DNA from: Fidelibacterota bacterium
GTDB taxonomy: Bacteria; Fidelibacterota; UBA2242
DNA: 34,799 bases
NCBI GenBank assembly: GCA_028719225.1
Contig: JAQUKI010000002.1
Location: 1-34,799 of the forward strand
Direction: 5' to 3'
Shown: one piece after another, positions 10,896 through 34,799 of the stretch
Layout of the letters: each line of letters opens with the position of its first letter
Numbering within the stretch: the first letter of the stretch is position 1
The notes under the pieces: model-generated
The model's database searches: none
Told to the model about the DNA's origin: nothing
The model's input: only the letters and a program-made list of their open reading frames with translations
Translations under genes and position numbers: made by a program

Positions 10896-11032
10896 TTAAG
10901 AAACAATCTTGGCGATCCAAATATTTGAACGATTTATCATTAATAAAACGTTTTGTATCTCATGTCTGTTTTTAAAATTAACTGATAAATTACATGAGTT
11001 ATAAAGCGGCTTCTCGTCGATAAAAGTGGAGC

Positions 11033-11090: not shown

Positions 11091-11215
11091 TTTTCTTGAC
11101 GATAGCAATGAGTAAAAGGAGGAACTGGATGGGGGAACTCATTACAATCTGACAGAATGCCAAAGAAATCCAGACCTTAATCCTGCACCTAATTTTAATA
11201 ATCCAGTTGCTCATT

Positions 11216-11461: not shown

Positions 11462-11528
11462 TCGCTACCAACTAGAATTTTCAGGACATTTTCGTCGGTC
11501 AGATGAATTTTTCGCAGAGCGCGAAAGT

Positions 11529-14382: not shown

Positions 14383-14457
14383 TAAATATCCCTTAATAAA
14401 ATCTTAATATTTGCTGCAACCTCACATAAAGTGTTCGGTTATAGGCTGCAATTCCTT

Positions 14458-15456: not shown

Positions 15457-15500
15457 TTTTAACTCCTTAATCAATTATTTCACTTTATTTTTCTCATCAT

Positions 15501-16778: not shown

Positions 16779-16805
16779 AATCTTCTCCTCATTGATAATT
16801 AAACA

Positions 16806-18164
16806 TTATTGTTTTGCCGATAACATTAGATCTGTGTAAATGGTATCGTCAATTGGAAAATTTATTTTACGAAAATCCGCTCTCAAATCAGTTTCAAAGG
16901 CAGAGGATAACGCACATACCATCATCGTTGCCCGAAAAGTTGCGCCTTCAACTGAATTATTCTCGGGATCATAACGACTATGCCAATCTTTATCAAAATG
17001 TTGAAGAAAAGTCAGCATTCTTTTGACCGATTCCCGATAATCGTAGTTCCCTTTTTCAGCATACTCGAAAAACTTATAAGCGACCGTCATAAAAGTTGGG
17101 AATGTTTCGTCGCCATCAGCATTTGGATCGTTCCAGGAAGAAAACGGGCAGCCGGAATCAATGTATTTTTTGTAACATCTCGCTAGCCCCTGAAATGAAT
17201 TCTCGGCGGATAGTTGGATCTCATAAGCCAGATCGGAACTGATCCCAAATTTTTTATAATCATTTACAAGACAGTACGAGGTTGCGTGTGCAAATATTTG
17301 TGCCATCGCTTCAGAATAGATCGCGTTAGCATTACCATCAGATTTTCCACCGAAATAGTAGTCAGCCGGAGTATTCAAGGTAAAATTATGGCCCATTTCA
17401 TGGAAAAAAGACGACCACTGAATTGACCCCTGAAATCCATAATCTCCGACGCCAAAACTTACCGGATTCGTGTACCAGAGCGAGTACATTCCGCCAAATC
17501 CGGCATCTCTCAATAACACCTGTTGAAAAGTATCATTCGCCATATATACATCACTATTGACAAAATCCATTTGAATACTTGCCGCCACACCGAGGATGTA
17601 TTCAATCATCTCTCTGGATATTTCCGTAAAAAATTCATCCGGGAAAAAAGACAGAGTCTCCGAAAATTTGTACATGCCTTCCTGCGGTAAACGACTGCCG
17701 AGTTCGACTTTTGAATTCGGAATGGTGACGGTTATTTTGTTGCTGAGTGGAACAGGTTTCAACTCCAGAGAAACAAACCGGACAAACGCTTCAACGGTTT
17801 CAGATGAGGAGTCGGGATAGCAGGCTTTTACTTTAACGATATAATTCTGAGTCCGATCAGTATAAATATGTTCCTGAGGAAAACTGCCTTTAGTTACTGA
17901 ACCATCGCCCCAATTCCATAAAAATAGAGTCGTAGGTTTTCGACTATTGCCACCTCTAATGACAACGTTTCCCGTAGTTTTATCTACCGACTTAACGTTC
18001 ACGTACATCGTCGGCACTTCACTCAGGACATACTTGGAATAATTGAAAGGCTTTTTATCTTTACAATTATTGATCTGACAGAGAGAACTACAACTATAGC
18101 AAAAAACAAAACTGGATATTAAACAAAGCATCATGATCGTATTTTTCATATTCTGTCCAAACAT
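16806..18164 (-). CDS. Secreted HEMGHN zinc-metallopeptidase-like protein (gluzincin, M60-like) with an N-terminal PKD-like domain
   Basis: Signal peptide. PKD-like WNWGDGSVTKGSFPQEHIYTDRTQNYIVKVKA. HEMGHN is followed by Glu at +26 (IYSEAMAQ), which fits HEXXHX(8,28)E. The C-terminal DLRADFRKINFPID is shared with the 21615-23117 paralogue. Confidence 0.6.
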   Translation of the reverse strand: MFGQNMKNTIMMLCLISSFVFCYSCSSLCQINNCKDKKPFNYSKYVLSEVPTMYVNVKSVDKTTGNVVIRGGNSRKPTTLFLWNWGDGSVTKGSFPQEHIYTDRTQNYIVKVKACYPDSSSETVEAFVRFVSLELKPVPLSNKITVTIPNSKVELGSRLPQEGMYKFSETLSFFPDEFFTEISREMIEYILGVAASIQMDFVNSDVYMANDTFQQVLLRDAGFGGMYSLWYTNPVSFGVGDYGFQGSIQWSSFFHEMGHNFTLNTPADYYFGGKSDGNANAIYSEAMAQIFAHATSYCLVNDYKKFGISSDLAYEIQLSAENSFQGLARCYKKYIDSGCPFSSWNDPNADGDETFPTFMTVAYKFFEYAEKGNYDYRESVKRMLTFLQHFDKDWHSRYDPENNSVEGATFRATMMVCALSSAFETDLRADFRKINFPIDDTIYTDLMLSAKQ

Positions 18165-18212
18165 TTATTTACTCGATTATTCATACACTTATTCATCTTC
18201 TTAAAAGAGGAT

Positions 18213-20228: not shown

Positions 20229-20281
20229 CTATCCATTTCCATGAGCATTTGTATCTACTAATACAACGTATGATAATGGTT

Positions 20282-21583
20282 TCACTTTTTCCCGTCAGAA
20301 TTCATTCGATCCTGAAGCGCGAAGAAGTCCGCGACATTTTCATACATTATCTTTTTAGCCAATGCGATAGCGAAGTTAAAATCGTACAAACCACTCTGGA
20401 CTTTATCAGCCAGGACTCCTGCCAGTATTTCCCGGAAATAGAGTGTCTGCCCGAGCGCGCCTTCATAAACGCGATAACTATCTGCACCCCACATAATCTT
20501 ATTCTGCGGCACCATTTCTATCCATTCACTCAAACAACGCCGGGATAAATCCAGAGAAGTCCATTGCATACCGTTTATGTCGAGATAAGCGTTTGGGTAA
20601 TTGTTCGCCAAAACGCCAAATTCACTCGTGTACGGAATCCCTCCATGGAAGACATCGAATTTCAACTTTGGATATTTTCTCATCAAAGTAGTCAGATTAT
20701 TAGGATTTGTATTTTCGATGAACTGGAAATTCCAGGCGAGTTTACCGGTATGAAACTGGATCGGCAGATCACTCTCTTCCGTCAAGCGGCAGATTTCATT
20801 CATCACAAAATCCTGCAATATCTTTTTCTCGTTCGGCGTGATATTCTTTAGACCTTTATCGAAAATGCATTTCGCCGTTACTTCATCAACATCCGCGTAA
20901 TTAATTGTCCGGTAATAAGCCGCTACGGACTTGATAGCGACAGCGCCGCCTTCCTTGAACTGCTTAAAAACTGAGCGGATTAGATCCAGTAAATCCTGAA
21001 ACGTTCTCAGACTGACGCCAAATCTCTTCTCAAGTCGTTTTATACCTTCGGGATCCGTACCCTGCATCATCAGAAAATCCATTTTCATCGATGGAATTAA
21101 ATAATCTCTGTCGGTTGAAAGCGTATCCATATCCACAACAGCGACCTGAATATTCCCTTTCTCGCGCAAGACATAATCGATCCAATCTTCCCGTTTGTAA
21201 GCAGCAACGATCTGCTCGTTCAGCATTGCCCAATTTTCATCGTCGATATTTACATAGGGAAAATCATAAACCGCCTTAAACCCGCGCAATAATCCTAGAT
21301 AGGACACCATATTCTCGATATTCCGCATATAAGGTCCAACAACCTTCCATTTCTTGACCGAATCCGTCGTACCCTGCGGCCAGGGTGTTGCGGCGTGCGA
21401 ACCGATTCCCGGCATTCCGGATACCGTCAAGTCAGAGTTTAGGTTATGAAATAGGATGTCACAGAGATCAAATTTCGGCCATTCTCCATCTGGATTGGGT
21501 GCAAAATGGTCATGCGATTCATAAATCGGCAAAGCATCGACAACTGCTTTAATATCTGCGTAAATGTCTGACTGTTTTTTCAT
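20282..21583 (-). CDS. Amidohydrolase-fold (TIM-barrel metal-dependent) enzyme, distantly uronate isomerase (UxaC)-like
   Basis: N-terminal LPIYESHDHFAP compares with UxaC PIFDYHCHLPP. The C-terminal FREILAGVLADKV...KKIMYENVADFFAL resembles the UxaC C-terminus. No signal peptide. Confidence 0.5.
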   Translation of the reverse strand: MKKQSDIYADIKAVVDALPIYESHDHFAPNPDGEWPKFDLCDILFHNLNSDLTVSGMPGIGSHAATPWPQGTTDSVKKWKVVGPYMRNIENMVSYLGLLRGFKAVYDFPYVNIDDENWAMLNEQIVAAYKREDWIDYVLREKGNIQVAVVDMDTLSTDRDYLIPSMKMDFLMMQGTDPEGIKRLEKRFGVSLRTFQDLLDLIRSVFKQFKEGGAVAIKSVAAYYRTINYADVDEVTAKCIFDKGLKNITPNEKKILQDFVMNEICRLTEESDLPIQFHTGKLAWNFQFIENTNPNNLTTLMRKYPKLKFDVFHGGIPYTSEFGVLANNYPNAYLDINGMQWTSLDLSRRCLSEWIEMVPQNKIMWGADSYRVYEGALGQTLYFREILAGVLADKVQSGLYDFNFAIALAKKIMYENVADFFALQDRMNSDGKK

Positions 21584-21614
21584 TGTTCCTTCTTCAATAT
21601 AAATGTGAATTATC

Positions 21615-23117
21615 TTAGTTCACCGTAAGACTTTTCTTGACCAGCGGTAAGATTGTTTTATAAAATTTATTATCGATCGGGTAGTTCCATTTTTGAAACT
21701 GTTTGCGGAGATCGTGATCGGCGGCAACACTGAATGCCGTCACGAATATCGTTGTGCGTTTGGTATCGTCATTGCCAGCCAATTGATATATTTGGTCGTT
21801 CACGTCGTTCTTTAGAAATATCCTGAAAAACCCGGGAAACATTTCCCAGCCAAACTTATCTCCTAAACGAATACAAATACCGTCGAGTATGTCGGGAGTC
21901 ATTCGATCTCTACCCAGTTTCCGGGTTTCGTAAGATTCCAGGGCTGCCAAGAATTTTTCCCGCATCGATTTGTTCTCTTCGTCGACCAGATTCTTCATAA
22001 GTGGCGTTAGTTCGTTTTTATCGATTGTTTCTGCAACATAAAGACTTGCCAGAGAAGCTAGTCCTTCGGCAAAGCCATTGAAAATAGCGGTTTTATCATA
22101 GTATTCTTCTCCCAGCAGGTAGGCGAATCCCGGTAATCCTCCAAACTGGAAATTGTGCCCCATTTCGTGAAATGTGATAAAAAGTGAAAACTTGTTTTCG
22201 TTCAGGTGATTTTTCCCAAAATGGATGGGATTCCCGCTATAGGCAAAATTGATTGTGGGATCATATAAAAAGCCCTGTTTTTCTCCGGGAAGAGGCCCCA
22301 ACGAAGGGACTTGACCGGCCGAGAGTTCCTTCTCGATAGAATAACCAGTGTCCAACAGGTGTACCAAATCCATTGCATCGATTGTAGGTTCGTACCATTT
22401 TGGGAAATCCATCTGGATGTACTGCCCTTCATATCGCTGTATCTTTCCTAAATCACCAGCGGGAAGATCCTGCGGCTTACTTGTGCCGACCCATTCCGTC
22501 CCGGCCGGAAACACCCGAAGTTCCCAACGATACAAACGTTTTCTAAAACGTGAGCCGTCCTGAAAAATACCGTTAAAGGAAAAACTACACGTGTCGAATC
22601 GCCCCGATTTATAGTACTGAGTTTTATCGGTGCTGTAGATTTCGATTTCATAATTTGCGATGGCAGAATATGGACTCCACCGAAATGTCAACGGATTTTG
22701 CTCGGCGACATTTTCCAGATCGACGCTCTCGCCGTCTTGCGGATAGAGAGTTTTCACTGCAAATCCATCAACCTGTCGAAGGATTTTTTGCTGGTTTGTT
22801 TCATCGATTTTGAGATTTTTAGTCCGCCACTGGAGCGGCATCCGAACACCGACATCCGCCGGATGAGTGATCAGATAGTAATCACCATCCGGCAAATTTG
22901 AAACCACAAAAATACCGTTTGAGTCCGAATCCGTTTTACCAAAATACAGGCCGGTTGTAGCATTATGAATATTAATGCGCAAACTGCACGGTTTCTCATT
23001 CTCGAAAAATACTCCTCGGATTTCGCCGTTTGCATCACCCGCATTCGCTTCATTTATCAATAAACATGACATTGTTATAAACACCATCAAAACGTATAGA
23101 ATCTGTTTATTTCTCAT
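21615..23117 (-). CDS. Secreted HEMGHN zinc-metallopeptidase-like protein (gluzincin, M60-like) with an N-terminal CarboxypepD_reg-like domain
   Basis: Signal peptide. SDSNGIFVVSNLPDGDYYL is a carboxypeptidase-regulatory-like fold. HEMGHNFQ is followed by Glu residues at +16/+17 and by NGFAEGLA. The C-terminal DLRKQFQKWNYPID is paralogous to 16806-18164. Confidence 0.6.
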   Translation of the reverse strand: MRNKQILYVLMVFITMSCLLINEANAGDANGEIRGVFFENEKPCSLRINIHNATTGLYFGKTDSDSNGIFVVSNLPDGDYYLITHPADVGVRMPLQWRTKNLKIDETNQQKILRQVDGFAVKTLYPQDGESVDLENVAEQNPLTFRWSPYSAIANYEIEIYSTDKTQYYKSGRFDTCSFSFNGIFQDGSRFRKRLYRWELRVFPAGTEWVGTSKPQDLPAGDLGKIQRYEGQYIQMDFPKWYEPTIDAMDLVHLLDTGYSIEKELSAGQVPSLGPLPGEKQGFLYDPTINFAYSGNPIHFGKNHLNENKFSLFITFHEMGHNFQFGGLPGFAYLLGEEYYDKTAIFNGFAEGLASLASLYVAETIDKNELTPLMKNLVDEENKSMREKFLAALESYETRKLGRDRMTPDILDGICIRLGDKFGWEMFPGFFRIFLKNDVNDQIYQLAGNDDTKRTTIFVTAFSVAADHDLRKQFQKWNYPIDNKFYKTILPLVKKSLTVN

Positions 23118-23142
23118 TCCAATTCCATTAGAATCACAGGGA

Positions 23143-24531
23143 TTATACTTTCTTTTTTGAATTCACGCTTTCAAGGAACCTGTTTGTTGCATCGTGCAAT
23201 TTCAAGCAGACTTTTTTGGCATTGAGTTCCTCGCCAAAATAGAGTAATTCAGTGTTTCTACGGTAAATATCTTCCCATTCCTGATATTTACTAATGTAAG
23301 GCACAACGACACCATCCCTATGGGCTAAATCATAAAACACTTTTTTATAACTGGTCATTTTCTTCGCAATTTTGCCCTGCGGTAATCCATATTCGTACAT
23401 GGACTGTCGGCTGACAAACATTCTGCCACTTTCGCCGATGATCTTCAGATTTTCAGGATTACTGAGCATGTAGCGTGTCAATTCATAAGCGATGTGTTTA
23501 TGAGCGGCTTTTTGCGGAATGGACAGCGCCGAACCGCCGACGAATTGGAACCGTCCCTTGTTGCCTCTGGGGGTTGGCGCTACTGTCCAGTTGAATTTAT
23601 CTTCCAGCAAATCACCGAAAGCCGGAGCTCCCAAATCGAAATTAATCGCTATCACGCCATCGACAAACGGTTGAGGTCTGCCCTGAGTTAGTTCCGGAAC
23701 CGGGGCCACTTTATGCTTCCAGCGTAGATCGTTCATCCACTGATAAGCCTCGATCGTCTCGGGCAAATTAAATTTGGACTCTGTCATGTCCTCATTGAAC
23801 CAGTCTCCGCCAAACGAACGTAAGATCCAGTACTGATAACCGGCATTTGCCTCGCTGCCCAGATTGAGACCGAACTGCCGAGTTCCTTTTGTAAGTTTTT
23901 TCCCAACCCGCAGTAGATCGTCGAACGTCCAGTTTTCAGTCGGCAATTCCTCGTCGATCGTTTTGTACATATCGAGGTTTACGTACAATCCGCCGGTCGC
24001 ATAGTCGTATGGAAAACCGTACTGACTTTTATTATATTGAAAAGATTCTACCTGTGTGCCATAATACTCCTGCGGCCAGCCGTCCGGTTTGAAAAATTCG
24101 ATAAACGGATCCAAATTCTGTAACAGGTCGATCGACGCAAATGATTTGGCGCGGGTATCGTGCATCCAAACGAGATCGGGCGGTGAACCTCCGGCTAACA
24201 GAACCGGTAACTTCGTATTATAATTCGCGAAACTGATACCCCAATCCAGTTGCACCTTGATATTCGGATAATATTTCTTGAAGAACGTGTTGATGATACG
24301 TTCCCATTTTTCAAACTGAAAGGCGCTTTCCCAGCTCATTATTTTAAATGTACCGGTAATATTCGGATCAACTACGCCCATAGTCCATGCAGTTTGAGGA
24401 TACTTCACATCAAACGACAATAGTTTTGAGGATACGGCTTTTTCGGTATTTCCACAAAAGCGTAAGTAAGACAAACCATATGCCCCAATTCCCAATTGGC
24501 CAAGTTTTTTTAAAAATTCTCTTCTGATCAT
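23143..24531 (-). CDS. ABC transporter extracellular solute-binding protein (family 1, carbohydrate type) with Tat signal
   Basis: The N-terminus MIRREFLKKLGQLGIGAYG carries a twin-arginine motif. At 462 aa it has the typical sugar-SBP size and composition, and it is adjacent to two MalFG-type permeases. Confidence 0.8.
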   Translation of the reverse strand: MIRREFLKKLGQLGIGAYGLSYLRFCGNTEKAVSSKLLSFDVKYPQTAWTMGVVDPNITGTFKIMSWESAFQFEKWERIINTFFKKYYPNIKVQLDWGISFANYNTKLPVLLAGGSPPDLVWMHDTRAKSFASIDLLQNLDPFIEFFKPDGWPQEYYGTQVESFQYNKSQYGFPYDYATGGLYVNLDMYKTIDEELPTENWTFDDLLRVGKKLTKGTRQFGLNLGSEANAGYQYWILRSFGGDWFNEDMTESKFNLPETIEAYQWMNDLRWKHKVAPVPELTQGRPQPFVDGVIAINFDLGAPAFGDLLEDKFNWTVAPTPRGNKGRFQFVGGSALSIPQKAAHKHIAYELTRYMLSNPENLKIIGESGRMFVSRQSMYEYGLPQGKIAKKMTSYKKVFYDLAHRDGVVVPYISKYQEWEDIYRRNTELLYFGEELNAKKVCLKLHDATNRFLESVNSKKKV

Positions 24532-24562
24532 ATCAGTTTTCCTTCAAATATAGGTTACGCGA

Positions 24563-25405
24563 TCAGCCCTTGAGTCCTGAGGTGACAACACCTTTTACAT
24601 AGTATTTTTGGCCGATGACGAAAAGTATGAGGATCGGCAAAACAGTTGCACAGGAAGCTGCCATTATCAGGTGCCAGGGCGTCTCCGCCGCAATGCGCGT
24701 CTGAAACATTACCAGTCCCAGCGGTAATGTCTTCTTGCCGATTGTATTTATCATGATCAAAGGCCAAAAGAAATTGTTCCAAGTCCCCATGAATGTAAAG
24801 ATGCCCAAAGTCGCAAAAACCGGCTTGCATTGCGGCACGATAATCTTCCAATACAGCTGCCAATAATTGCACCCATCAATTTTAGCCGCATCTTCAAGCG
24901 CCCTTGGAATTCCCATCATAAATTGACGCATTAAAAAAGTACCCCAGGCGCTAAACAAACAGGGAACAATTAAGGATTTGAGCGTGTCCGTCCACCCGAG
25001 CGACTGCATGATAATGAATAACGGGATCATCAACACCGGGAAAGGAATCATCATCGTTGCCAGATACATAAGGAATAATTTATCACGTCCCGGAAACCGT
25101 AGACGAGCAAAGGCATATCCGCCAAACGAACATGTAAACAACTGCCCGACTGTCACACAAACCGTCACAAAAATCGAATTAAATAAAAACCGATCGAATG
25201 GAAGCGCATTCCATGCATCTATATAGTTAGACCACTGAAATTTCTTGGGCATGAACACCGGTGGAAATGTCCAGATTTCTCCGGCCGTCTTAAAAGACGA
25301 AAATATCATCCAAACAAACGGCAGAATTACCGCCATACTAGAAATTATCAATATTGTGTATGTGATAAAATTAGCAATATAATTTTGGGTATTTTTATTC
25401 AACAT
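24563..25405 (-). CDS. Carbohydrate ABC transporter permease (MalG-like)
   Basis: 6-TM profile. EAA loop LEDAAKIDGCNYWQLYWKIIVP. Confidence 0.85.
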   Translation of the reverse strand: MLNKNTQNYIANFITYTILIISSMAVILPFVWMIFSSFKTAGEIWTFPPVFMPKKFQWSNYIDAWNALPFDRFLFNSIFVTVCVTVGQLFTCSFGGYAFARLRFPGRDKLFLMYLATMMIPFPVLMIPLFIIMQSLGWTDTLKSLIVPCLFSAWGTFLMRQFMMGIPRALEDAAKIDGCNYWQLYWKIIVPQCKPVFATLGIFTFMGTWNNFFWPLIMINTIGKKTLPLGLVMFQTRIAAETPWHLIMAASCATVLPILILFVIGQKYYVKGVVTSGLKG

Positions 25406-25411
25406 GACGGA

Positions 25412-26317
25412 TCATTCCACCCCTTCATCGAAAACCCATTTGTTTGAAAAATGCCACTGGATAAGAGTTAATATGAGAACGATAATGAACAACATCATCG
25501 CAACTGTTGCGGCATATCCCATTTTGAACCACTCAAAGGCGTTTTGAAAAATATAATATACTAGAGTCGTCGTTGCTCCGGAGGGGCCGCCACGGGTCAT
25601 GATGTAAAATTGGTCAAAACCCTGAATGGAGCCAATTGTCGTCGTTACAATCACGAAGAATGTCGTGGGTGAGATCAATGGAATCGTGATGTGAACAATT
25701 TTATGCCACCAGTTGGCGCCGTCGATTTCGGCCGCTTCGTAATATCGTTCCGGTATACCTTGCAGTCCTGCCAAAAAGATCAACATTGAATATCCGGTAC
25801 CTTTCCAGATGCCCATTATTATAATCGCCGGCATTGCCCACTCCTTGCTTTGTAACCAGCGTGGGCCGGTTATACCGATTTTCCCCAGAAAATAATTGAA
25901 CAATCCGAAGTCGGCATTATACAACCACGACCATACTATCGCAATGGCGACAAGCAGAGTAACGCTCGGTAAAAATTGCAGAGTCCGAAAGAACACAACT
26001 CCACGAATTTTCCTGTTTAGCAAGTACGCCAGGGAAAAGGCCAGGATGACCGTTAGCGGTATCGTACCGATGGCATAGTAAAACGTATTCCAGAGATATG
26101 TCCAGAATAGTTCATCTTTGAGAACGTTTGCAAAATTCTCAAATCCTACGAACTTTGGACTTGAAGCAAGATTCCAACTTGTAAAAGTGAGAAATACACT
26201 GGCAATAATCGGTATTAAACTAAAGATCAGAAACCCAAGTAAATTGGGAGATAGAAAGCTATAGCCAGCAATTTTTTCTTTTTGAATATAGTTCAGTTTA
26301 AACAATTTGTTTATCAC
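25412..26317 (-). CDS. Carbohydrate ABC transporter permease (MalF-like)
   Basis: AGYSFLSPNLLGF N-terminus. EAA loop YYEAAEIDGANWWHKIVHITIP. GTG start as annotated, with no clear RBS. Confidence 0.85.
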   Translation of the reverse strand: MINKLFKLNYIQKEKIAGYSFLSPNLLGFLIFSLIPIIASVFLTFTSWNLASSPKFVGFENFANVLKDELFWTYLWNTFYYAIGTIPLTVILAFSLAYLLNRKIRGVVFFRTLQFLPSVTLLVAIAIVWSWLYNADFGLFNYFLGKIGITGPRWLQSKEWAMPAIIIMGIWKGTGYSMLIFLAGLQGIPERYYEAAEIDGANWWHKIVHITIPLISPTTFFVIVTTTIGSIQGFDQFYIMTRGGPSGATTTLVYYIFQNAFEWFKMGYAATVAMMLFIIVLILTLIQWHFSNKWVFDEGVE

Positions 26318-26385
26318 TTAAGTTATAATTTAGAAATCATTAACGATTTTCAAATAAATCTGTCCGGATCTATTTGGCTCCAAGT

Positions 26386-27378
26386 TTAGGCGATATCGAT
26401 TACCACCTTGAGCGTTTCGTGTAAATCATTCAGGCATTTGTTCAAACCCTTTTCTATGTCCTCCAGAGGAAAATGATGCGTAATCAGTTCATTGACTTTT
26501 AGTCTTCCGGATGCAACTAATTCAACAACAAAATTCGCGAGGTTTTTTGTTCTGTCGATCCCAGGTTCAAATCCTCTCATCGTAATGTCTTCGTTACTCA
26601 CATACCAAGTATTTACGAAGTCATTCAGCCGGCGATGGCCGAAAATAATATATCTTCCGTGCCGTTTCAACAGGTTTAATCCCAATTCGACCGAATTTCC
26701 TTTAGCCCAGCGATTGTCACCCATTGCATCGATTACCATGTCGAGTTGCCCGACTTTCTGCTGAAGAATCTCAAGCGCTTCATCATACGTTTTACAGGAT
26801 AAATTCAATGTATAATCAGCCGCCAATTCTCTGGACTTTGCAAGACGGTTATCGTACAAATCGACCGTGTAAATTTCAGCGGCACCAGCCAATTTCGCTT
26901 CCTGTGCTAAAAACAATCCAGCAGGACCTTGCCCGAATATTAAAACTTTATCTCCAATATGCAAACCGGAATCATAGATCAAACGAATGGTACCACACGC
27001 TAATTCTAACAGCGCTCCTTCATCGTAGGTCATGCCATCCTTCATTTTACAGACTCCAAGCACGTTAGGCTTAATTGTGTTATATTCCGCAAATCCTCCA
27101 GTCATCTTGACCCAATAACCGACACGATCACCTAATTTATAATCATTAGAACATTCTTTACCAACCTCAATGACCTCTCCACAGCATTCATGTCCTAAAA
27201 TATGGGGCATCGGTGGAGTGGCTCTTGGGCGAAAATCACCTTGCCAAATATGAGTGTCTGTTGTATTACATATCGCAGAACGGTGAACTTTTATAAGCAA
27301 TTCGTCCGGACCGCATTTCGGTATCGGAACATCATCGATGGACAATTGTATCGGTTTGTGCAGGACTGCCGCTTTCAT
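26386..27378 (-). CDS. Zinc-dependent medium-chain dehydrogenase (sorbitol/threonine dehydrogenase-like)
   Basis: GHECCGEV zinc site, GQGPAGL Rossmann motif, 330 aa, AAGGAG RBS. Confidence 0.85.
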   Translation of the reverse strand: MKAAVLHKPIQLSIDDVPIPKCGPDELLIKVHRSAICNTTDTHIWQGDFRPRATPPMPHILGHECCGEVIEVGKECSNDYKLGDRVGYWVKMTGGFAEYNTIKPNVLGVCKMKDGMTYDEGALLELACGTIRLIYDSGLHIGDKVLIFGQGPAGLFLAQEAKLAGAAEIYTVDLYDNRLAKSRELAADYTLNLSCKTYDEALEILQQKVGQLDMVIDAMGDNRWAKGNSVELGLNLLKRHGRYIIFGHRRLNDFVNTWYVSNEDITMRGFEPGIDRTKNLANFVVELVASGRLKVNELITHHFPLEDIEKGLNKCLNDLHETLKVVIDIA

Positions 27379-28256
27379 TTACATTCTCCTTGTTTTAATA
27401 TTTGAATTGTATTGTGCACATTTTCCATGAATATCTTTTTTAGATAATTCGGATGAACATGCGGTTCCATAGTATAGTATCCATTATATCCGTCTTTTAT
27501 CAGGTGTTCTATCAGCAATGAATATGGAATCACTCCTTTTCCTACCTCACAGCAAAGATAATTCGCCGACATATCCTGCCATAGAAATCCATCACCGGGA
27601 TAATCATATAAACTCTTATGATATTTCATACCATCTTTTATATGGACATATCCGATATATTTTTTAAGCAAATTATATGCATATGGATATGGTTCCTCGC
27701 CCGCAAAATAAAAATTACAGGCATCGAAAGTCAGTCGGAAATGTGGCGAATTCACTATTTCCACAAGTTCTAATACATTTTCGGCCTTGCGCGTAGGATC
27801 GACACCCGTAACATCAAACTCATTTTCGAGCACGATAGTGATATTTTCCTTCTCAGCGAATTCCAGGCATATAGCAATATTTTCTTTGTACAACTGTATT
27901 GCCTTTTGCGGTGTTCTATCCGGATGAGCGCCAAAATAAGTATTGACTATAGGAGCCCCGAGCTCTTTCGCGGCTTTGATACTTCGTATTATCTCAGCCT
28001 GTCTTTGACCGACATTTCCGGGAAGATTAAGTTGTGTCCAGGTAGAAATGCAAATCGCCTGTAATTTCTGCTTCTCAAGGTCATCTTTTATTATTCCAAC
28101 CTGGTTATATTCGAAGTTATGAGGAATCCATAATTCTAAATTCGATACACCCACATATTTTGCAATATCATAAATCTCTTCAATCGGTCGGTACGGATAC
28201 TCTGTGCCAGAGATAGCAATCTGGTTCATTATTTGTGTAGACTTAGTAATTTTCAA
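27375..28256 (-). CDS. Sugar phosphate isomerase/epimerase (xylose isomerase-like TIM barrel, AP_endonuc_2 family)
   Basis: IVLENEFD and YVHIKDG metal-site-like motifs. GGAGGA RBS. TTG start. ATGA overlap with the dehydrogenase gene. Confidence 0.7.
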   Translation of the reverse strand: MKITKSTQIMNQIAISGTEYPYRPIEEIYDIAKYVGVSNLELWIPHNFEYNQVGIIKDDLEKQKLQAICISTWTQLNLPGNVGQRQAEIIRSIKAAKELGAPIVNTYFGAHPDRTPQKAIQLYKENIAICLEFAEKENITIVLENEFDVTGVDPTRKAENVLELVEIVNSPHFRLTFDACNFYFAGEEPYPYAYNLLKKYIGYVHIKDGMKYHKSLYDYPGDGFLWQDMSANYLCCEVGKGVIPYSLLIEHLIKDGYNGYYTMEPHVHPNYLKKIFMENVHNTIQILKQGECK

Positions 28257-28311: not shown

Positions 28312-29325
28312 TTAAAATGAAACCGATAAACCGGTCTGATGCTGAAGATCGAAGTCTCGCAGATTTAGTGTAGCATAATCAAACTCAAAGCGGATATTTT
28401 TTATATGAAAGCGGACTCCAGCTCCCACACTCCAATCATATCCTTCATGTTCAAATTGATAGCCTCCACGCAGTATGTAGTTTTCCATAAAGCTATATTC
28501 CAGCCCGACATTTTCGCTCTCGCCAATATCGCTTGAATAATAGATACTGCTCATAACCGCCAGTTTATGATAATTTACTCTGACAAGGTCATATGCTCCT
28601 CCGAATCGAAAGCTCATCGGCAGAGCCAGTTTTTTCGGGACATATCCCAATGTAACTTCATCGACATTCTCTTCCGGATATATCTGGTAATCGAATTCTA
28701 ATTGTGTTCCGGAAATATCCTGTTTCATTCCAAAGTTCGAAAAGGACATTCCAACGTGAAATTTATTGTAATTATATATCAACCCGACGTCAAACGCCCA
28801 ACCATCCGAAACAAGGTCCCAGATTTGTTCATTGATATATTTCACGGAAATGGCAGCCATGAATCGGTCCGTGACACGGCGTCCATAAGTCATCGTGAGC
28901 GCATAGTCGGCAGCGGAAAAATACTTGCCCGTTCCTTGCGGATCGGTAATCGTCGTCTCTTCCATTTCGCCCATATTAACAAATGTCAGAGAGGCCCCGA
29001 GATAATCATTACTTGTAACCGGAACTGTAGCGCCCAGAAAACTGTGATTGATATTTGCTATCCATTTGTTGTTAAAAAAGGTCACTTCCATTTTATCGCG
29101 GGCACAGATACCAGCCGGATTCCAGTACATGGAATATGGACCATTGGCTGTGGAAACATTGGCGCCGCCAAGAGCATTACCTCTCGCACCTACGCCGATT
29201 TTTAAAAACTGAAAACTCGTCGTTCCAACCTTATTATCAATTTGTTTGGCGAATAGAACCGTGAATAAGGATAGAATTAGGACCATGATCGCTATTTTAT
29301 TTCTCATTGAATACCTCATCAACAT
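28312..29325 (-). CDS. PorV/PorQ-family outer-membrane beta-barrel protein
   Basis: Signal peptide, then GTTSFQFLKIGVGARGNALGGANVS...YWNPAGI (PorV/PorQ N-terminal signature). Alternating beta-strand pattern with a C-terminal ...GLSVSF. Confidence 0.7.
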   Translation of the reverse strand: MLMRYSMRNKIAIMVLILSLFTVLFAKQIDNKVGTTSFQFLKIGVGARGNALGGANVSTANGPYSMYWNPAGICARDKMEVTFFNNKWIANINHSFLGATVPVTSNDYLGASLTFVNMGEMEETTITDPQGTGKYFSAADYALTMTYGRRVTDRFMAAISVKYINEQIWDLVSDGWAFDVGLIYNYNKFHVGMSFSNFGMKQDISGTQLEFDYQIYPEENVDEVTLGYVPKKLALPMSFRFGGAYDLVRVNYHKLAVMSSIYYSSDIGESENVGLEYSFMENYILRGGYQFEHEGYDWSVGAGVRFHIKNIRFEFDYATLNLRDFDLQHQTGLSVSF

Positions 29326-29336
29326 ACTTATGATTT

Positions 29337-32129
29337 CTACCTTATCACCGCAAATTTTCCGACATCATTTCCAAAGGGAGAATCCAGATAAAACACATAG
29401 ATTCCCGTGGCAACTTTCTGATTGTTGTTAGTCATCAAATCCCAGAAGGCTGTACCGGCTGTTTGGCCGGAAAAACCGGCTTCATAGGCCTCCTTATGAC
29501 GGATCGTCTTTACCAAATCACCCGCAACCGTATAAATTCTCAGCGTACATTCCGTGGGGAGATTGATAAACTGGATTCTTTGATAATCGTTATCAATGTC
29601 CCAGGAAGCGCGAACCAAGTATGGATTCGGCACAACCTTGACATCTATATCAGCGTGATAATCGATCTGTCTGCTTACCGTAGAAAACTGGTATGATTCT
29701 CCAAACATCGGGGCGCGTACGCCGGAAAGTCGGACATACATCACATCTCCACCGACAATCTCTCTATTAAGATCCTCGATAAAAATGAATGCGCCGGGGA
29801 TATAGATTTTAAAACCGTCGGAAGTATTATCTATTTTATTCTTGAATCCTGTCGGGTAATTATACCACGTCCATGTAGTATCACCGGTTGTCGCATTTAC
29901 GGAACCAACAGATCTCTCATAGTTAGCAATCGAGAAGGTCCGACCAAACGACCGCATTACATATTCAAGCGTATCCGGAGTATCGAGATCGTAAACATAT
30001 ATTCTTCGGCTGCCGCTCAACTCATAGAATTCGATTTTATATAGATGGGGCATGAAGTATGACCCAAACGGATAGTCGCGTGGAATACATGTCTGAGCGG
30101 TTGTAAAATCATCATATTCTGTTATCGCACGTATCGTTACGGTCGATTTTGGTGACTCAAAATATACCGTATCGATTTTATTCTTTAAAAGATTCGGGCC
30201 TGTATATAACAACCGCATACCATCGAACAATTCTGATTGGACAGTACTTATCGGATTACCAACCGGAAAATTCAGTGTCGTAACAATCGTATCCCCGGTT
30301 GATTGGTCGACGAGATATATATCCGGTCCTAACTGAGTCACATCCTTGTCATATCGAAAAGTGGATACCTCCGAGAACTGAATCTGGAACGTTTTATCTT
30401 TAACACTATCCGCTATCAAATACTCGGGAGTGATACTGAAATCTATTTCTTCACTATTTTCACTCGTTACTTGCAGTCCTTCCATCTCCGGATCCGTAAA
30501 ATTGGATGGCGGCGGATTTGGAACGGCCGCAGTTAAATTTACACCAAATACCATACCGGTTTCCTGAGGTGGAACGACTTCAAAATCGGAAACGCCATAT
30601 CCGCCTGCCTGATACTCGCCCTTATCATAAGCCGTGACCGCGTAAAAATAGGTCTTGCCATTAATTAGATCGGTATCTATATAATTATGTGTCAAACCGG
30701 TATTCTTACCTATTGCGTTGCCCAGATCATCGAAACTTACCTTATCCCATTGACCCAATAACTCAAAATCTCCCTCTTGACCGGTTAAACTCTTCCACAG
30801 TTTATAACCCTCAAAATCGAGTGAGTCGGAAAAATCCGGTAATGACAGGATTCTCTCGACCGTCTTTTCAGCAACGTCATCCCATTTAATTACAATTTTC
30901 TGATCAATGGGAAATAACTCAAGTTTTGGCATGTCCGGCGGTTGAGGAAACTTATAATCATTATCGTATACAAACTGGGCGTTTTCGGCAACCAATTTAA
31001 GATAATCGGCGTAGTGTTCCGGCTCGTTTTTAACAGAAGGATCGTAATAATATTGCGGCCACGCAAAACAGATGGCTACAACAAATTTTGTCGAATCGCC
31101 ATAAGCCAGATTAAATGGGCCGGATGATAGAAAAATCCTCTTGTCAGCCGGGTCGGTATCTTCCAGATCATAGGTTCCGGCAGATAAGATATCGTAACGC
31201 GCTTCATCGTTATTCGGATCTGTTTCCCAGCGCCTGAATGATGACATCTTTGCTTTCCCGGTTTCGGGATCACGGGCGGGACCATCCAGAAATTTAATTC
31301 CCACATAACCGGGTATATGTTCAAGATCTTTTTCTATTCCGGAAAGTGTGGCTGCACTGTACGCAAAACCGATATTCAAATCTGGAAAACAACCCGTCAG
31401 ATCATTGGTTGGATCACCTATATCCGGATCCATTGAAAAGCCAATATAGGCATCTTCCCATGTCTTATGGTCGGCATTTATATTTTTAATCGTGTAAGAT
31501 AAGAAAGCGATGTCCCAAACATCCCGAAAACTGCTGTTCCATGAGTAGGTTTCTGTCGTCAGCAAAACTCCCAGTGATTTTCCTGCTTCAAATTGTCTGG
31601 ACGGATCAAGATCATTGCACTGAGCATAGGAATCCATTTGAGATTTTGCAATCGGAGTTCCATCTTCATTATATCCCATCGGCCATGGCGGCAATGCGGC
31701 GTTCGGGTAATCCGTGCTTATATAAACAATTTCGGTTGGATCACTATATCCCGGCTCATTGGGAAGATTTCCCGGAACCATCTCGGTCTGTACATTTGCA
31801 GAATTATAACCAACTGTCACCTGTTTTGCATTATCAATCTTGGCGCCGATCCAAATGCCGGCTCCAAAAATATAGCCTTCATCGGTTCCGCGAAGCCAGC
31901 GCCCACCACCCGGAGTCTGAGCACTTGGATCCCAGCCAAAACGCCCGTCGTTAGTTATTGGTATTTCATATCGAGCATAAATCGTACGCAAATCACTAAC
32001 AGTCGGCTTCTTGAGACTTTTATTCTGTCCGTTGCCTGGTAATGCAAATATTTGAGTAGTAAAAAGAACTGACACAATAAAAGGCTTGAGTCCGATGCGG
32101 ATTTGCGGGCACATTCGTCTATGATTCAT
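29337..32129 (-). CDS. Large (930 aa) secreted protein of unknown function with a T9SS-type C-terminal sorting domain
   Basis: Signal peptide ...TTQIFALPG. No catalytic motif recognised. The C-terminal ~100 aa (VKVVPNPY...LRIYTVAGDLVKTI...WDL...VATGIYVFYL...GKFAVIR) align with the CTD of the 9745-10203 protein. AAGGAG RBS. Confidence 0.7.
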   Translation of the reverse strand: MNHRRMCPQIRIGLKPFIVSVLFTTQIFALPGNGQNKSLKKPTVSDLRTIYARYEIPITNDGRFGWDPSAQTPGGGRWLRGTDEGYIFGAGIWIGAKIDNAKQVTVGYNSANVQTEMVPGNLPNEPGYSDPTEIVYISTDYPNAALPPWPMGYNEDGTPIAKSQMDSYAQCNDLDPSRQFEAGKSLGVLLTTETYSWNSSFRDVWDIAFLSYTIKNINADHKTWEDAYIGFSMDPDIGDPTNDLTGCFPDLNIGFAYSAATLSGIEKDLEHIPGYVGIKFLDGPARDPETGKAKMSSFRRWETDPNNDEARYDILSAGTYDLEDTDPADKRIFLSSGPFNLAYGDSTKFVVAICFAWPQYYYDPSVKNEPEHYADYLKLVAENAQFVYDNDYKFPQPPDMPKLELFPIDQKIVIKWDDVAEKTVERILSLPDFSDSLDFEGYKLWKSLTGQEGDFELLGQWDKVSFDDLGNAIGKNTGLTHNYIDTDLINGKTYFYAVTAYDKGEYQAGGYGVSDFEVVPPQETGMVFGVNLTAAVPNPPPSNFTDPEMEGLQVTSENSEEIDFSITPEYLIADSVKDKTFQIQFSEVSTFRYDKDVTQLGPDIYLVDQSTGDTIVTTLNFPVGNPISTVQSELFDGMRLLYTGPNLLKNKIDTVYFESPKSTVTIRAITEYDDFTTAQTCIPRDYPFGSYFMPHLYKIEFYELSGSRRIYVYDLDTPDTLEYVMRSFGRTFSIANYERSVGSVNATTGDTTWTWYNYPTGFKNKIDNTSDGFKIYIPGAFIFIEDLNREIVGGDVMYVRLSGVRAPMFGESYQFSTVSRQIDYHADIDVKVVPNPYLVRASWDIDNDYQRIQFINLPTECTLRIYTVAGDLVKTIRHKEAYEAGFSGQTAGTAFWDLMTNNNQKVATGIYVFYLDSPFGNDVGKFAVIR

Positions 32130-32148
32130 AAGAATAATACTCCTTTAC

Positions 32149-34770
32149 CTAAAATTTTATCTCTATCCCAACCGTAAAAGTCCTCGGGTTTGGATAATGA
32201 TTTTTCAAATCAAGCATATCGTTCTGATAATTCAGATATGCTGCCAATCTTTCTGCCGGTGTCAAAACTCCATCACCGTCAAAATCAGACCATTCCGAAT
32301 ACAACTTACTTTCACCCTTAACATACGTATCGCTGGATAAACTACCTATCGTCAGATTGTACAACGGGTCATCAGGATCTCCGGATCCTTCAAAAACCGA
32401 AGTCGGCGCTTGTAAATTAAAAAGATTGTACACTTCAAGAAGCAGCGTTACATCCTGTTTCAGCACCTTAATGTCCTTATAGAACTTACCATTGACGTAA
32501 TATGTCCAGGGATATCGGGCGGAATTGAACCTGTCAGTCGTCACATCAACCGTGTAAGAAGTGACTGGCGTGTAAGGTCTTCCGGAACTGACGTTTGACA
32601 TGATATTCGCGCCGAATCCGGATAATAACTTCGTACCAAGAATCGACGGTCCTTCCTGGGCAGGAATGTAGAAATCGAGATTAAAATTAAAAGTATGACG
32701 CTGATCGAAATCCATCGGCATCGTATCCTGCGGATAGATCGGTTCATATCCCAATTGCTTAGCATACGTTACACTTGTTAACGGATAACGCGAAATCTGT
32801 GTCACGGTCGATGAAGTACCGTCCGCAATCGCAAAAGAATAACTCATCGAACCACCAATATAATGGTTTATCCGTTTCCGCAGCGTTAGTTCCAAACCTT
32901 TCGATTCGGCATATTCCTCGTTGAAAGCCTGAAAATACCAATCCAGATCCGGCGATCTTCTGATTCTATAACCTTCAAGATTGAACATATTCTTCTGATA
33001 AAGCGTCACATCCATTGCAATATCATCCGTCAAAATTGTCGATAGACCGACTTCGTAGGCAATTGTCTTCTGAGGTTCGATATCCGGATTTCCCATATTT
33101 ACGTCGCCCTGATTTCTATCAAGCCACAAATAGGCAAACATGCGCTCCATCGGAGGCGTTTGGAAAAAGTAACCATAATTAAATCTAAACATTGTCTTTT
33201 CCGTAACGGGAAATGAAATTCCCAATCTCGGACTGATCTGATATTTCGCATCCGAAGACGTACGATCCTGTAAAAAAGGATTGGAAGGATCGGTCTGAAT
33301 CGGATTAATTCGATATTCGGTAAATGTATCAAAATAGTCGAAACGCAATCCCATGTTCACGAATATATTTTTCATCTGAAACTGATAATTCAAATAACTT
33401 GCGAATTCAAGTGGTTGATAACCCTCACCCAGATCGTCCACGCCTGTAATACTTAAAGCAGTATCACTGGGCGATGCTTCATAATAATCGATTAAAGGAT
33501 ATGTAACACCAACTCCGTTATAAGCCGCCATGGCTCCAATCGCAAAGCGATTGACATTATGCCGTTTTAATTCAAATCCGGTCTTTACTTCACCATTCAA
33601 AAACAACTGACTGGTAAGGTCGAATTTTAGAGTTACGCACCGATCTCTATTCTGAGAATACCAATCATTATCACCACTATATATGAAACTACCGAAATAA
33701 TCGGCATCCATTGTATTCTGTATACCACCGGTAATTCCATATGGATTGGATGCAGATACCGCGCTCGAAGTCGTCTGCGAATATACATCGCCAATACCCT
33801 TGCTATCGCGAAGGCGCCATTTACTATATGTGTTCGTATCACCCATAATGTGATAATCGGTATCAAGAAATGGTTCGCGGAATGTATAATCCTCCCAAAA
33901 AGCACAATTAGACCCGACTTTGTTGCCAGACCATTCTGACCGATCTCTTTGACCGCTAATAGATACCCAATCTGTAATTCCGGCTTTTAACGTATAAAAA
34001 GTTTTTGAACTAATTGTATGGTCCAGTGTAATCGTTCCATACTTTGTTTTATTTAAATAAGCTCCCAGCCGATCCAATTGATTTTCATCATTCCCAAAAC
34101 GCCAGAGTAGGTTGTAATTAAGTCCCTGGGATCTATTAATTGATCCGGTAACTTTCAATTTCATCGACGGAGTAATCGGAACGCTCAATTTTAAATTTGT
34201 ACGATATTCCTGATATCCCTGGTGAGGATGTCTTCCAATATTTGTCCCGTCCGGAGCAAATACTTCCCGTCCCGGAACCATATCATAGGAATTTAGGTAG
34301 GTAGTCAGAAAAAATCTGCTCTTCTTAATTAAAGGTCCGCCAAAGGTAAAATCCAGGATGTTAGCGTTCTGATAATACTGGCTTGATGAACTCAGTTTAT
34401 CCGTTTTATAACGCATACTTCCTTCGTATTTAGATCCACCCTCCTTGGTCACGACATTGAGTACACCACCCATGGCATTGCCGTATTCTGCGGAAAATCC
34501 ACCCGTTTGCACAACGATCTCGTCAACGGCATTCTTGCTGATATCGGTAAGGATTCCACCGCTAATCGGATTTGTCAACGAAAGACCATCTACCATATAA
34601 CTCACATCGGTCGAGCGACTACCACGGATATAATTGCCACTGGCAACTCCTGCAGTCGTATTAAGAACACTGGACACAGACTCGATCGGCAGATTTTTAA
34701 ATTCATCGGATGAAATCGTCTTGGTGGAAGCCGATACATCTTTATGAATTAAGGGGCGTTCCGCAATGAC
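32149..34770 (-). CDS. TonB-dependent outer-membrane receptor (plug plus 22-strand barrel); N-terminus interrupted by an in-frame TAA and running off the window
   Basis: Plug motifs (NLPIESVSSVLNTTAGV, IRGSRSTDVSYMVDGLS, EIVVQTGGFSAEYGNAMGGVLNV). Barrel ends ...TFTVGIEIKF. The frame stays open above the annotated GTG (34677) up to TAA at 34771-34773, and receptor-like sequence continues beyond it. Confidence 0.85.
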   Translation of the reverse strand, partial: VIAERPLIHKDVSASTKTISSDEFKNLPIESVSSVLNTTAGVASGNYIRGSRSTDVSYMVDGLSLTNPISGGILTDISKNAVDEIVVQTGGFSAEYGNAMGGVLNVVTKEGGSKYEGSMRYKTDKLSSSSQYYQNANILDFTFGGPLIKKSRFFLTTYLNSYDMVPGREVFAPDGTNIGRHPHQGYQEYRTNLKLSVPITPSMKLKVTGSINRSQGLNYNLLWRFGNDENQLDRLGAYLNKTKYGTITLDHTISSKTFYTLKAGITDWVSISGQRDRSEWSGNKVGSNCAFWEDYTFREPFLDTDYHIMGDTNTYSKWRLRDSKGIGDVYSQTTSSAVSASNPYGITGGIQNTMDADYFGSFIYSGDNDWYSQNRDRCVTLKFDLTSQLFLNGEVKTGFELKRHNVNRFAIGAMAAYNGVGVTYPLIDYYEASPSDTALSITGVDDLGEGYQPLEFASYLNYQFQMKNIFVNMGLRFDYFDTFTEYRINPIQTDPSNPFLQDRTSSDAKYQISPRLGISFPVTEKTMFRFNYGYFFQTPPMERMFAYLWLDRNQGDVNMGNPDIEPQKTIAYEVGLSTILTDDIAMDVTLYQKNMFNLEGYRIRRSPDLDWYFQAFNEEYAESKGLELTLRKRINHYIGGSMSYSFAIADGTSSTVTQISRYPLTSVTYAKQLGYEPIYPQDTMPMDFDQRHTFNFNLDFYIPAQEGPSILGTKLLSGFGANIMSNVSSGRPYTPVTSYTVDVTTDRFNSARYPWTYYVNGKFYKDIKVLKQDVTLLLEVYNLFNLQAPTSVFEGSGDPDDPLYNLTIGSLSSDTYVKGESKLYSEWSDFDGDGVLTPAERLAAYLNYQNDMLDLKNHYPNPRTFTVGIEIKF

Positions 34771-34799
34771 TTACACACCTTTCATATCAATTACTTGTG

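Follow-up and report, generated by a model that had tools for sequence, protein, structure and literature searches.

SusC/SusD (RagA/RagB) loci are the paradigm of glycan foraging: a TonB-dependent receptor (TBDR) with an N-terminal CarboxypepD_reg domain is encoded ahead of its extracellular partner, the tetratricopeptide-repeat lipoprotein SusD, among genes for glycoside hydrolases, binding proteins and regulators, and several paralogous copies occur per genome. Yet these loci are almost exclusive to Bacteroidota, as are the lids of other transporters. Non-SusC transporters in Bacteroides have proposed alternate lids (BtuG, XusB, DUF4876 and others) that are encoded adjacently, and why lids should be nearly restricted to Bacteroidota was posed as a question by the same authors, who suggested that other diderms are unable to export such lipoproteins (Price et al., bioRxiv 10.1101/2023.03.17.533168). 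In this study, a three-gene unit on contig JAQUKI010000002.1 of a Fidelibacterota bacterium was analyzed computationally; the analyzed DNA, referred to below as the window, is the complete contig of 34,799 nt. The unit, referred to as the trio, encodes a TBDR, a 930-aa secreted protein (the cargo) and a 337-aa outer-membrane barrel of the PorV/PorQ family, all on the minus strand. It probably acts as an alternative to the SusC/SusD pair for which no published description was found, in which parts of the type IX secretion pathway provide a TonB-dependent transporter with a surface partner of its own. The trio resembles SusC/SusD in all of the above respects of gene order, receptor N-terminus, surrounding genes and copy number, the partner being predicted here to be non-enzymatic. 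Unlike SusC/SusD, it has an obligatory third gene, that of the barrel, and it is found mainly outside Bacteroidia. It likewise differs from the BtuG/XusB-type lids, which are lipoproteins, are almost confined to Bacteroidota and serve small substrates, whereas the partner in the trio is unlipidated, linked to a barrel and encoded in other phyla of the Fibrobacterota–Chlorobiota–Bacteroidota (FCB) group.

A second group of related systems comes from the type IX pathway. PorZ and PorU are type IX proteins with uncleaved tails that stay bound to PorQ and PorV, respectively, and cognate PorV-like barrels, including SprF with its type B cargo, have been proposed to protect and hold such retained tails, with clustering of the genes concerned (PMC10202324). 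The trio shares with PorQ–PorZ, PorV–PorU and SprF–SprB a PorV-superfamily barrel that appears dedicated to one tail-bearing protein, a tail thought to be retained as an anchor and adjacent genes. Unlike those pairs, the pair in the trio lies outside the secretion machinery, is tied to a TBDR and is multiplied per genome in nutrient loci. Furthermore, the TbpA/TbpB and Slam (DUF560) clusters of Proteobacteria encode a TBDR, a surface capture protein and a dedicated display barrel together. A receptor gene is also present in 120 of the 185 lipoprotein-containing Slam clusters (PMC5449769). This likeness is one of logic only, without homology: Slam is a DUF560 translocon with lipoprotein clients and serves iron sources, whereas the barrel in the trio is of the PorV/PorQ type and probably an anchor, its client is a non-lipoprotein and the loci concern glycans. 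No DUF560 match was found in the eight proteins scanned from the trio and its downstream operon, including the barrel. A precedent for the role proposed here for the barrel is BamG, a FadL-like barrel whose loops hold a surface protein and which is packed against BamA (PMC12578637). As in BamG–BamH, a 14-stranded FadL-superfamily barrel would serve as a structural subunit on a larger barrel and hold an extracellular protein. BamG–BamH, however, belongs to a protein-insertion machine and holds a lipoprotein, and its structures (9hjm_F and 9n2d_B) match the fold of the trio barrel less well than PorV does (TM-score ∼0.50 versus 0.70).

The initial annotation of the window, made from the DNA sequence alone, had described a TBDR gene followed after 19 nt by an open reading frame (ORF) for a 930-aa protein and, after a further 11 nt, by one for a 337-aa barrel. 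All three ORFs were found as described, with spacers at 32130–32148 (receptor stop to cargo) and 29326–29336 (cargo to barrel); the barrel start in public gene calls lies six codons later, giving 331 aa. The absence of a SusD gene that had been remarked on was also borne out, as no SusD-family Pfam match occurred in any major ORF of the window, nor was there one among 97 proteins flanking related trio loci.

The arrangement is strongly conserved. A scan of one genome per species returned at least 556 relatives of the cargo, from which 80 genome loci were fetched and searched with hidden Markov models (HMMs) built from the first six trios; contig ends permitting, 72 loci could be tested on each side. 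The receptor was directly upstream of the cargo in 70 of these 72 loci and the barrel directly downstream in 71, which settles in its favour the question of synteny raised with the initial annotation. Five further contexts, at 25–50% cargo identity, had the three genes in the same order. In a reciprocal search that started from the barrel, 4/4 homologues, down to 30% identity, were located in trios, with the middle gene confirmed by the cargo HMM. One of these is in a complete Gemmatimonadota genome (L093, CP070758.1), beside GH88 and heparinase II/III genes, the presence of which suggests a uronic-acid glycan as the substrate. The taxon labels of the loci, which for many metagenome-assembled genomes are the submitters' own, cover more than ten phylum-level lineages and lie mainly outside class Bacteroidia: KSB1, WOR-3, Marinimicrobia, Calditrichota, Ignavibacteria/Melioribacter, Rhodothermales, Balneolales (Balneolaceae), Rubricoccaceae, Stahlbacteria, Eisenbacteria, Kryptonia (Kryptonium), a Chlorobiales metagenome-assembled genome and others. 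Four assemblies, including the complete chromosomes OZ245730 and OZ244993, contribute two loci each; several genomes therefore carry two or more paralogous trios, each with its own barrel, and in them the barrel is not a single housekeeping copy. In addition, the distance matrices of the three proteins correlate with r = 0.75–0.89 over 58 trios (TBDR versus barrel, r = 0.89), meaning that the proteins are inherited together. The receptor, cargo and barrel are an almost invariant, co-inherited gene unit across many phyla.

One locus departs from the tight spacing. In L087 (7872–9700; cargo 73% identical), a GDSL lipase gene and a 277-aa outer-membrane-barrel fragment stand between the receptor and the cargo; the same cargo occurs on another contig (L088) in the normal tight arrangement. 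The interruption is either a local insertion or an assembly chimera.

The opening of the locus by a TBDR was confirmed at the domain level (Plug, TonB_dep_Rec_b-barrel and OMP_b-brl_4 in Pfam), with the correction that the gene is truncated by the contig end. Its frame runs to that end, and ∼125 N-terminal residues are lost, including the CarboxypepD_reg domain known from the orthologues, which are 880–1000 aa long. The frame also contains an in-frame TAA, 27 nt from the contig end, in a TonB-box-like segment that reads KGV*VIAERP in the window and GEVVVVAERP in orthologues, with TAA in place of Val; it is probably an assembly-end error, the alternative being a genuine pseudogenizing mutation. 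The receptor has the features of a generic TBDR, namely a Plug domain, a large β-barrel and, as read in the orthologues, a TonB-box-like segment ahead of the plug. However, the comparison with a SusC-type receptor that had accompanied the initial annotation did not hold. On the SusC/RagA model TIGR04056, four of five full-length orthologues scored 45–79 bits against a cut-off of 368, matching only in the N-terminal CarboxypepD_reg and plug part, and there was no match in the fifth (L001) or in the truncated window receptor. The receptor is thus best described as a plug-and-barrel TonB-dependent transporter outside the SusC family.

The barrel was confirmed to be PorV-like, as first proposed. 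It scored 182 bits on NF033709 (PorV/PorQ family; cut-off 90) and 46.8 bits on Pfam PorV (cut-off 27), and orthologous barrels scored 163–200 bits on NF033709. On the equivalog models it remained below all cut-offs, with PorQ first (NF033711, 98 of 220 bits), followed by PorV2 (NF052325, 86 of 325) and PorV (NF033710, 76 of 250); three orthologous barrels were also under the PorV, PorQ and PorV2 cut-offs, and PorQ was again the best. The barrel is therefore classed as a PorV/PorQ-family member that is an orthologue of neither PorV nor PorQ. At ∼335–350 aa, the trio barrels are shorter than the 402-aa PorV chain in the PDB.

A different function would follow if the barrel, as a channel of the FadL type, passed a small hydrophobic or amphipathic molecule and had no relation to the 930-aa protein, which would then be periplasmic or secreted. 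The barrel is indeed a FadL-superfamily member that matches TodX and FadL weakly, and some relatives have been named `long-subunit fatty acid transport protein' by the Joint Genome Institute. Nevertheless, PorV is clearly closer: a profile of 35 trio barrels matched F. johnsoniae PorV (6h3i_F) in the PDB with E = 3e-30, against ∼2e-3 for TodX/FadL, and the AlphaFold2 (AF2) model (pLDDT 88) had PorV as its top Foldseek hit, with a TM-score of 0.70 versus 0.51–0.58 for FadL and TodX. Moreover, the barrel adjoins a protein with a sorting-type tail in 71/72 loci and in all four reciprocal ones, and the loci are those of carbohydrate rather than lipid or aromatic metabolism. The channel was rejected on these sequence and fold scores and is considered extremely improbable.

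The cargo begins with a Sec signal peptide, MNHRRMCPQIRIGLKPFIVSVLFTTQIFALPGNG, which, as had been pointed out, has no lipobox cysteine at its end. No Pfam or NCBIfam domain was found above threshold in the protein; the matches were sub-threshold ones in the tail, to CHU_C (type B; 18.4 bits, cut-off 27) and to the C-terminus of PorZ (20.6 bits). Identity with PorZ itself was rejected, since the cut-off of NF052228 is 260 bits and only the model tail positions 673–740 were matched; unlike PorZ and PorU, the cargo has neither the PorZ propellers nor the PorU peptidase domain. A search of PDB sequences with a profile of the cargo family gave a marginal match to the PorU tail only. Homologues reach E = 0 at identities as low as 50%, so that chance resemblance is no concern. 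Almost none of them is named or carries a Pfam domain; among the named ones, those nearest to the cargo come from candidate division KSB1 (68% identity), with further ones from WOR-3. In an exhaustive profile search the family amounted to 4,385 cluster representatives when E ≤ 1e-30 was required and to 11,862 when the limit was E ≤ 1e-10, and it is thus a very large one without a Pfam or NCBIfam model. The closest public homologue (protein P0002, 81% identity) is labelled `archaeon' by its submitter; the label almost certainly reflects a mis-binned bacterial contig.

The AF2 model of the cargo (pLDDT 85, pTM 0.69) is almost entirely β, with almost no helices, and lacks a TIM-barrel or (α/α)6 catalytic domain. 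In Foldseek it aligned over ∼400 columns with GH116, GH94 and dextran dextrinase, with a TM-score of ∼0.2 normalized to the query. As the output gives aligned column counts only, the aligned residues were assigned by our own reading, according to which the matched parts would be the non-catalytic β-supersandwich N-domains of GH116/GH94 enzymes, corresponding to the N-terminal domain of the cargo. This domain has conserved acidic motifs (TNDGRFG, DIGD..DD and PADKRF..SGPF), the fibronectin type III (FN3) domain has the motifs DFEGY[RK].YK and YYYAVTAYD, and the C-terminal ∼100 residues (aa ∼831–930) are predicted to be β-strands throughout. Mean pairwise identity over 77 family members is 49% in the FN3 domain and 49% in the C-terminal tail, making these the most conserved parts, compared with 34% in the N-terminal domain (aa 45–330) and 23–25% in the middle region. 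A short cargo of 792 aa in the Gemmatimonadota locus (L093 5610–7988, CP070758.1) lacks the whole variable middle and keeps the N-terminal domain, FN3 domain and tail. The cargo is a Sec-exported, all-β non-lipoprotein with a conserved FN3 domain and a sorting-type tail. It is distinct from SusD/RagB: it is predicted to be all-β, has no SusD Pfam match and no lipobox, and, at 800–1300 aa, carries a sorting-type tail.

The fold relatives of the cargo are nevertheless glycoside hydrolases and phosphorylases, and the question arises whether it represents a new class of enzyme, held at the surface on its barrel, that would cut polymer beside the receptor in the manner of a SusG-like glycanase or some other hydrolase. 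The N-terminal supersandwich has the invariant or near-invariant acidic residues D173, D234 and D243 and the consensus DIGD..DD, and its conservation across loci with differing substrates is unusual for a substrate-specific binder. However, the parts matched in GH116, GH94 and GH15-type enzymes are non-catalytic N-domains by our reading; the model contains no catalytic (α/α)6 or TIM domain, and neither Pfam, NCBIfam nor PDB sequences gave a match to such enzymes, so that the cargo cannot be classed with GH116, GH94 or GH15-like proteins. In addition, a single conserved active site is hard to reconcile with loci predicted to concern starch, β-glucan and uronic-acid glycans. A new enzyme is thus regarded as unlikely, and the initial statement that the protein has no catalytic motif agrees with the Pfam, PDB profile and Foldseek searches, which showed no known hydrolase or protease fold.

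The C-terminal tail connects the cargo to the barrel. On an HMM of the cargo tail, cargo tails scored a median of 128 bits, compared with 15–36 bits for the tails of ordinary neighbouring proteins, and the tail appears to be its own subclass of type IX sorting domain. Against NCBIfam, the tails of 40 cargo proteins matched PorZ in 24 cases, PorU in 17 and the generic type A model TIGR04183 in seven, whereas 46 ordinary neighbour tails matched TIGR04183 in 23 cases, PorU in 11 and PorZ in six. The window cargo had no match at E ≤ 0.01 to the type A sorting models TIGR04183 and PF18962. The tail is therefore most similar to those of PorZ and PorU and the barrel to PorQ; the initial comparison with a PorV shuttle gives way to one with PorQ and PorZ, an anchor pair.

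The pairing is illustrated by locus L096, in which the trio is followed by a BNR-repeat protein that starts at the FN3 region, has the middle replaced by BNR repeats and ends in a cargo-type tail (92 bits). This protein is followed by a second barrel; the two barrels (7001–8038 and 10819–11862) are 99.7% identical as proteins, and the DNA is duplicated at 95% over 1,278 nt, taking in the barrel, the spacer and the last ∼75 tail codons. No barrel goes with the protein encoded next, the tail of which is ordinary (15 bits). From the duplication, tail and barrel seem to travel together as a cassette. Barrels match cargo-type tails one to one, and because L096 has one barrel per cargo-type tail, the arrangement argues for stoichiometric anchoring, rather than for a shared shuttle. 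The initial proposal that a dedicated barrel could hold the co-encoded cargo gains support from this locus, the second cargo-type tail having its own duplicated barrel and the ordinary-tail protein none.

Another explanation is that the barrel is a private shuttle that does no more than help to export this one protein, as SprF does for SprB. The protein would be a type IX cargo of the ordinary kind, set free or fixed at another site after export, and co-regulation rather than a complex would account for its linkage to the receptor. Genes for cargo are known to cluster with that of a cognate PorP/SprF-type barrel (PMC10202324). The window barrel also marginally passes Pfam PorP_SprF (PF11751; 24 bits, cut-off 22.3), the match being limited to its C-terminal half, and many neighbours are ordinary tail-bearing secreted proteins. 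Co-regulation alone, however, leaves the fixed receptor–cargo–barrel order (∼97% of loci, in many phyla) unexplained, while the other tail-bearing proteins of trio loci vary freely. The three proteins co-diverge, with the closest correlation between TBDR and barrel, and the one-to-one use of barrels in L096 suggests a stoichiometric rather than a catalytic role. We consider a private shuttle rather unlikely.

The genes around the trio point to carbohydrate metabolism. Among 46 genes just downstream of trios, 23 encode sorting tails, and the set includes the starch-binding modules CBM20, CBM48, CBM53 and X25, as well as GH94, glucoamylase, GH16, GH66 and solute-binding proteins. The 51 upstream neighbours include 20 tail-bearing proteins, 14 SurA-like peptidyl-prolyl isomerases (PPIases), LacI regulators and CBM9 proteins. 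In a WOR-3 locus, exbB–exbD–exbD–tonB is followed by the trio, and in Melioribacter sp. OK-6-Me, which is in culture, the genes run PPIase, receptor, cargo, `PorV/PorQ family protein', CBM20 protein and α-amylase, by which content this is taken as a predicted starch locus. Because the neighbours vary around a fixed trio, the trio is the constant outer-membrane core of variable, carbohydrate-active loci resembling polysaccharide utilization loci. No type IX core genes were present in the Pfam lists of the fetched loci, which cover the locus stretches only.

The SurA-like genes raise the possibility that the trio serves envelope biogenesis or export, for instance the display of a surface layer or adhesin, with the `receptor' being a structural barrel; a few loci are also located beside glycosyltransferase or housekeeping genes. 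On the other hand, the receptors have a Plug domain and, as read from the orthologue sequences, a TonB-box-like segment, one locus follows exbBD–tonB, and most loci hold glycoside hydrolases, binding modules, LacI regulators and inner-membrane sugar transporters. A role in envelope biogenesis therefore seems highly improbable. The SurA-like double-PPIase gene, which stands directly before the receptor in 14/51 loci (for example L010, L012, L027, L036, L045, L048 and L096), may provide the two barrels, or else the cargo, with a periplasmic chaperone of their own.

With moderate confidence, and by analogy with SusD, we propose that the trio is the outer-membrane front end of a glycan-uptake locus in which a barrel-anchored, type IX-exported protein is the surface partner of the receptor. 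The host is probably a KSB1-like member of the FCB group outside Bacteroidia rather than a classical Bacteroidota bacterium. The cargo would be exported by Sec and then cross the outer membrane via the type IX pathway. Its tail would escape cleavage and stay on the co-encoded barrel, attached to the loops outside the cell, in the way that PorZ stays on PorQ and SprB-type cargo on SprF; with the barrel positioned beside the receptor, the cargo would come to lie above the receptor mouth or at its side. An oligosaccharide would be captured by the variable middle of the cargo together with its N-terminal supersandwich and passed to the receptor, the task performed by SusD in Bacteroidia. Import would be energized by TonB, and the sugar would be carried inward by the operon's ABC transporter and its periplasmic binding protein. 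The plug, the TonB-box-like segment and the exbBD–tonB neighbour speak for TonB dependence, and the gene content of the operon for onward transport. We infer the surface location and the physical complex of the trio. More tentatively, it is possible that the trio is a physically assembled outer-membrane machine and a widespread counterpart of SusCD outside Bacteroidia, consisting of a non-SusC TBDR and a type IX-secreted lid or capture subunit that is kept on a dedicated PorQ-like barrel through its retained PorZ-like tail.

Several observations weigh against this proposal. The N-terminal domain is fairly conserved between loci whose predicted substrates differ, which would suit a structural or catalytic function no less than substrate binding, and its acidic motifs could be a catalytic or metal site. 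The tail of the window cargo, which had initially been called clear, is recognizable by family-level homology and predicted fold but falls below every curated threshold, and sorting tails have been stated to be restricted to Bacteroidota (PMC10202324). The difference in conservation between cargo tails and neighbouring tails (47% versus 39%) is modest, although the subclass HMM scores and the PorZ/PorU bias are more informative than this comparison. Mirror-tree partial correlations gave shared history and no convincing domain-specific signal (tail versus barrel given TBDR, r = 0.15). Finally, L019 5857–8910 encodes a full-length cargo homologue without an adjacent receptor or barrel, the only true orphan among the fetched loci.

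In agreement with the initial description of the module as undescribed, a literature search, with subscription literature outside its reach, found no description of a trio of TBDR, tail-bearing protein and PorV-like barrel, and a September 2026 review of bacterial glycoside transporters makes no mention of PorV, type IX secretion (T9SS), Ignavibacteria, Gemmatimonadota or Rhodothermales. The 2013 genome paper on Melioribacter roseus names Mros0761–0759 `SusC, SusD, SusE' of a `sus operon', which may be a trio named by position. The Caldithrix abyssi genome paper does not describe such clusters.

The lineages with trios (Marinimicrobia, Calditrichota, Ignavibacteria, Rhodothermales, KSB1, WOR-3, Gemmatimonadota and others) are of importance to the turnover of carbon in ocean, sediment and soil. 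If the trio is equivalent to SusCD, it would provide a marker for predicting glycan use in largely uncultured phyla and would give a function to a very large family of unannotated proteins. Type IX tails with PorV/PorQ-type barrels would be a general surface-anchoring device for nutrient uptake, giving this barrel family a second, non-secretory role. The tail-plus-barrel anchor would be a different solution to the problem of lid export, and would explain how glycan importers can be capped in FCB lineages without Bacteroidia-type export of surface lipoproteins. The starch-linked trio in a cultured Melioribacter makes the idea directly testable.

Table 1. Coordinates of the trio, its domains and the genes that follow it in the window.
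Feature	Position	Strand	Description and basis
TonB-dependent receptor (TBDR)	32149..34799 (listed ORF 32149..34677)	-	Plug and 22-strand-type barrel; 5' end cut by contig end; Pfam
In-frame TAA in receptor TonB-box region	34771..34773	-	Translation and comparison with L087 and L088 orthologues
930-aa cargo protein	29337..32129	-	Signal peptide, predicted all-β multi-domain body, C-terminal sorting-type domain
Cargo N-terminal domain, aa ∼45–390	30960..31997	-	Predicted β-supersandwich; AF2 pLDDT mostly >85; Foldseek
Cargo fibronectin type III (FN3) domain, aa ∼400–505	30615..30932	-	Motifs; Foldseek matches to FN3 arrays
Cargo variable middle β-sandwich region, aa ∼506–830	29640..30614	-	23–25% mean identity; domain gaps in L093 and L096
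Cargo C-terminal domain, aa ∼831–930	29340..29639	-	Putative conserved, distinct subclass of type IX sorting domain; closest to PorZ and PorU retained tails
337-aa PorV/PorQ-family outer-membrane barrel	28312..29325	-	NF033709, PDB PorV match, AF2/Foldseek; proposed dedicated anchor for cargo tail
Downstream same-strand genes	13297..28256	-	Pfam; similar set in orthologous loci

After the barrel, the genes on the same strand encode, in order and as identified with Pfam, a sugar isomerase/epimerase-like TIM barrel, a Zn-dehydrogenase, two ABC permeases, a solute-binding protein, a 500-aa unknown protein, an amidohydrolase/UxaC-like protein, DUF2961, a 452-aa unknown protein, an M28 peptidase, GH130 and a MalK-type ATPase; the 452-aa and 500-aa proteins have no family match. 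An equivalent gene set follows the trio in the orthologous loci L001, L087 and L089, and in L001 an M61 peptidase and an amino-acid permease take the place of the ABC system. A terminator scan gave 25 terminator-like sites in comparison with 16.3 expected (standard deviation 4.3), none of them convincing between operon genes, and a promoter scan gave 49 promoter-like sites (50 expected), both scans being uninformative. Because same-strand sugar genes continue without convincing terminators between them, the trio heads a long sugar-utilization operon. The GH130, DUF2961 and peptidase genes hint at mannoside- or glycopeptide-type material, and the substrate may be a glycopeptide or an unusual mannoside.

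Elsewhere in the window, a gene on the plus strand (7421–9667) encodes a 748-aa protein with a Cthe_2159 carbohydrate-binding domain and is followed after 78 nt, in another frame, by a 152-aa ORF (9745–10203, plus strand) that is largely a type IX sorting tail (FlgD_ig/Por_Secre_tail). The two are possibly one gene split by a frameshift, and the second ORF indicates that the organism has ordinary tail-bearing proteins. The left part of the contig (1–6900) contains genes for a DnaB-type helicase (2206–3507), an N6/N4 DNA methylase (4126–5016), RusA (5013–5420) and a tyrosine integrase (5860–6858); its G+C content is uneven (0.37–0.49), and it looks like a mobile or prophage-like element.

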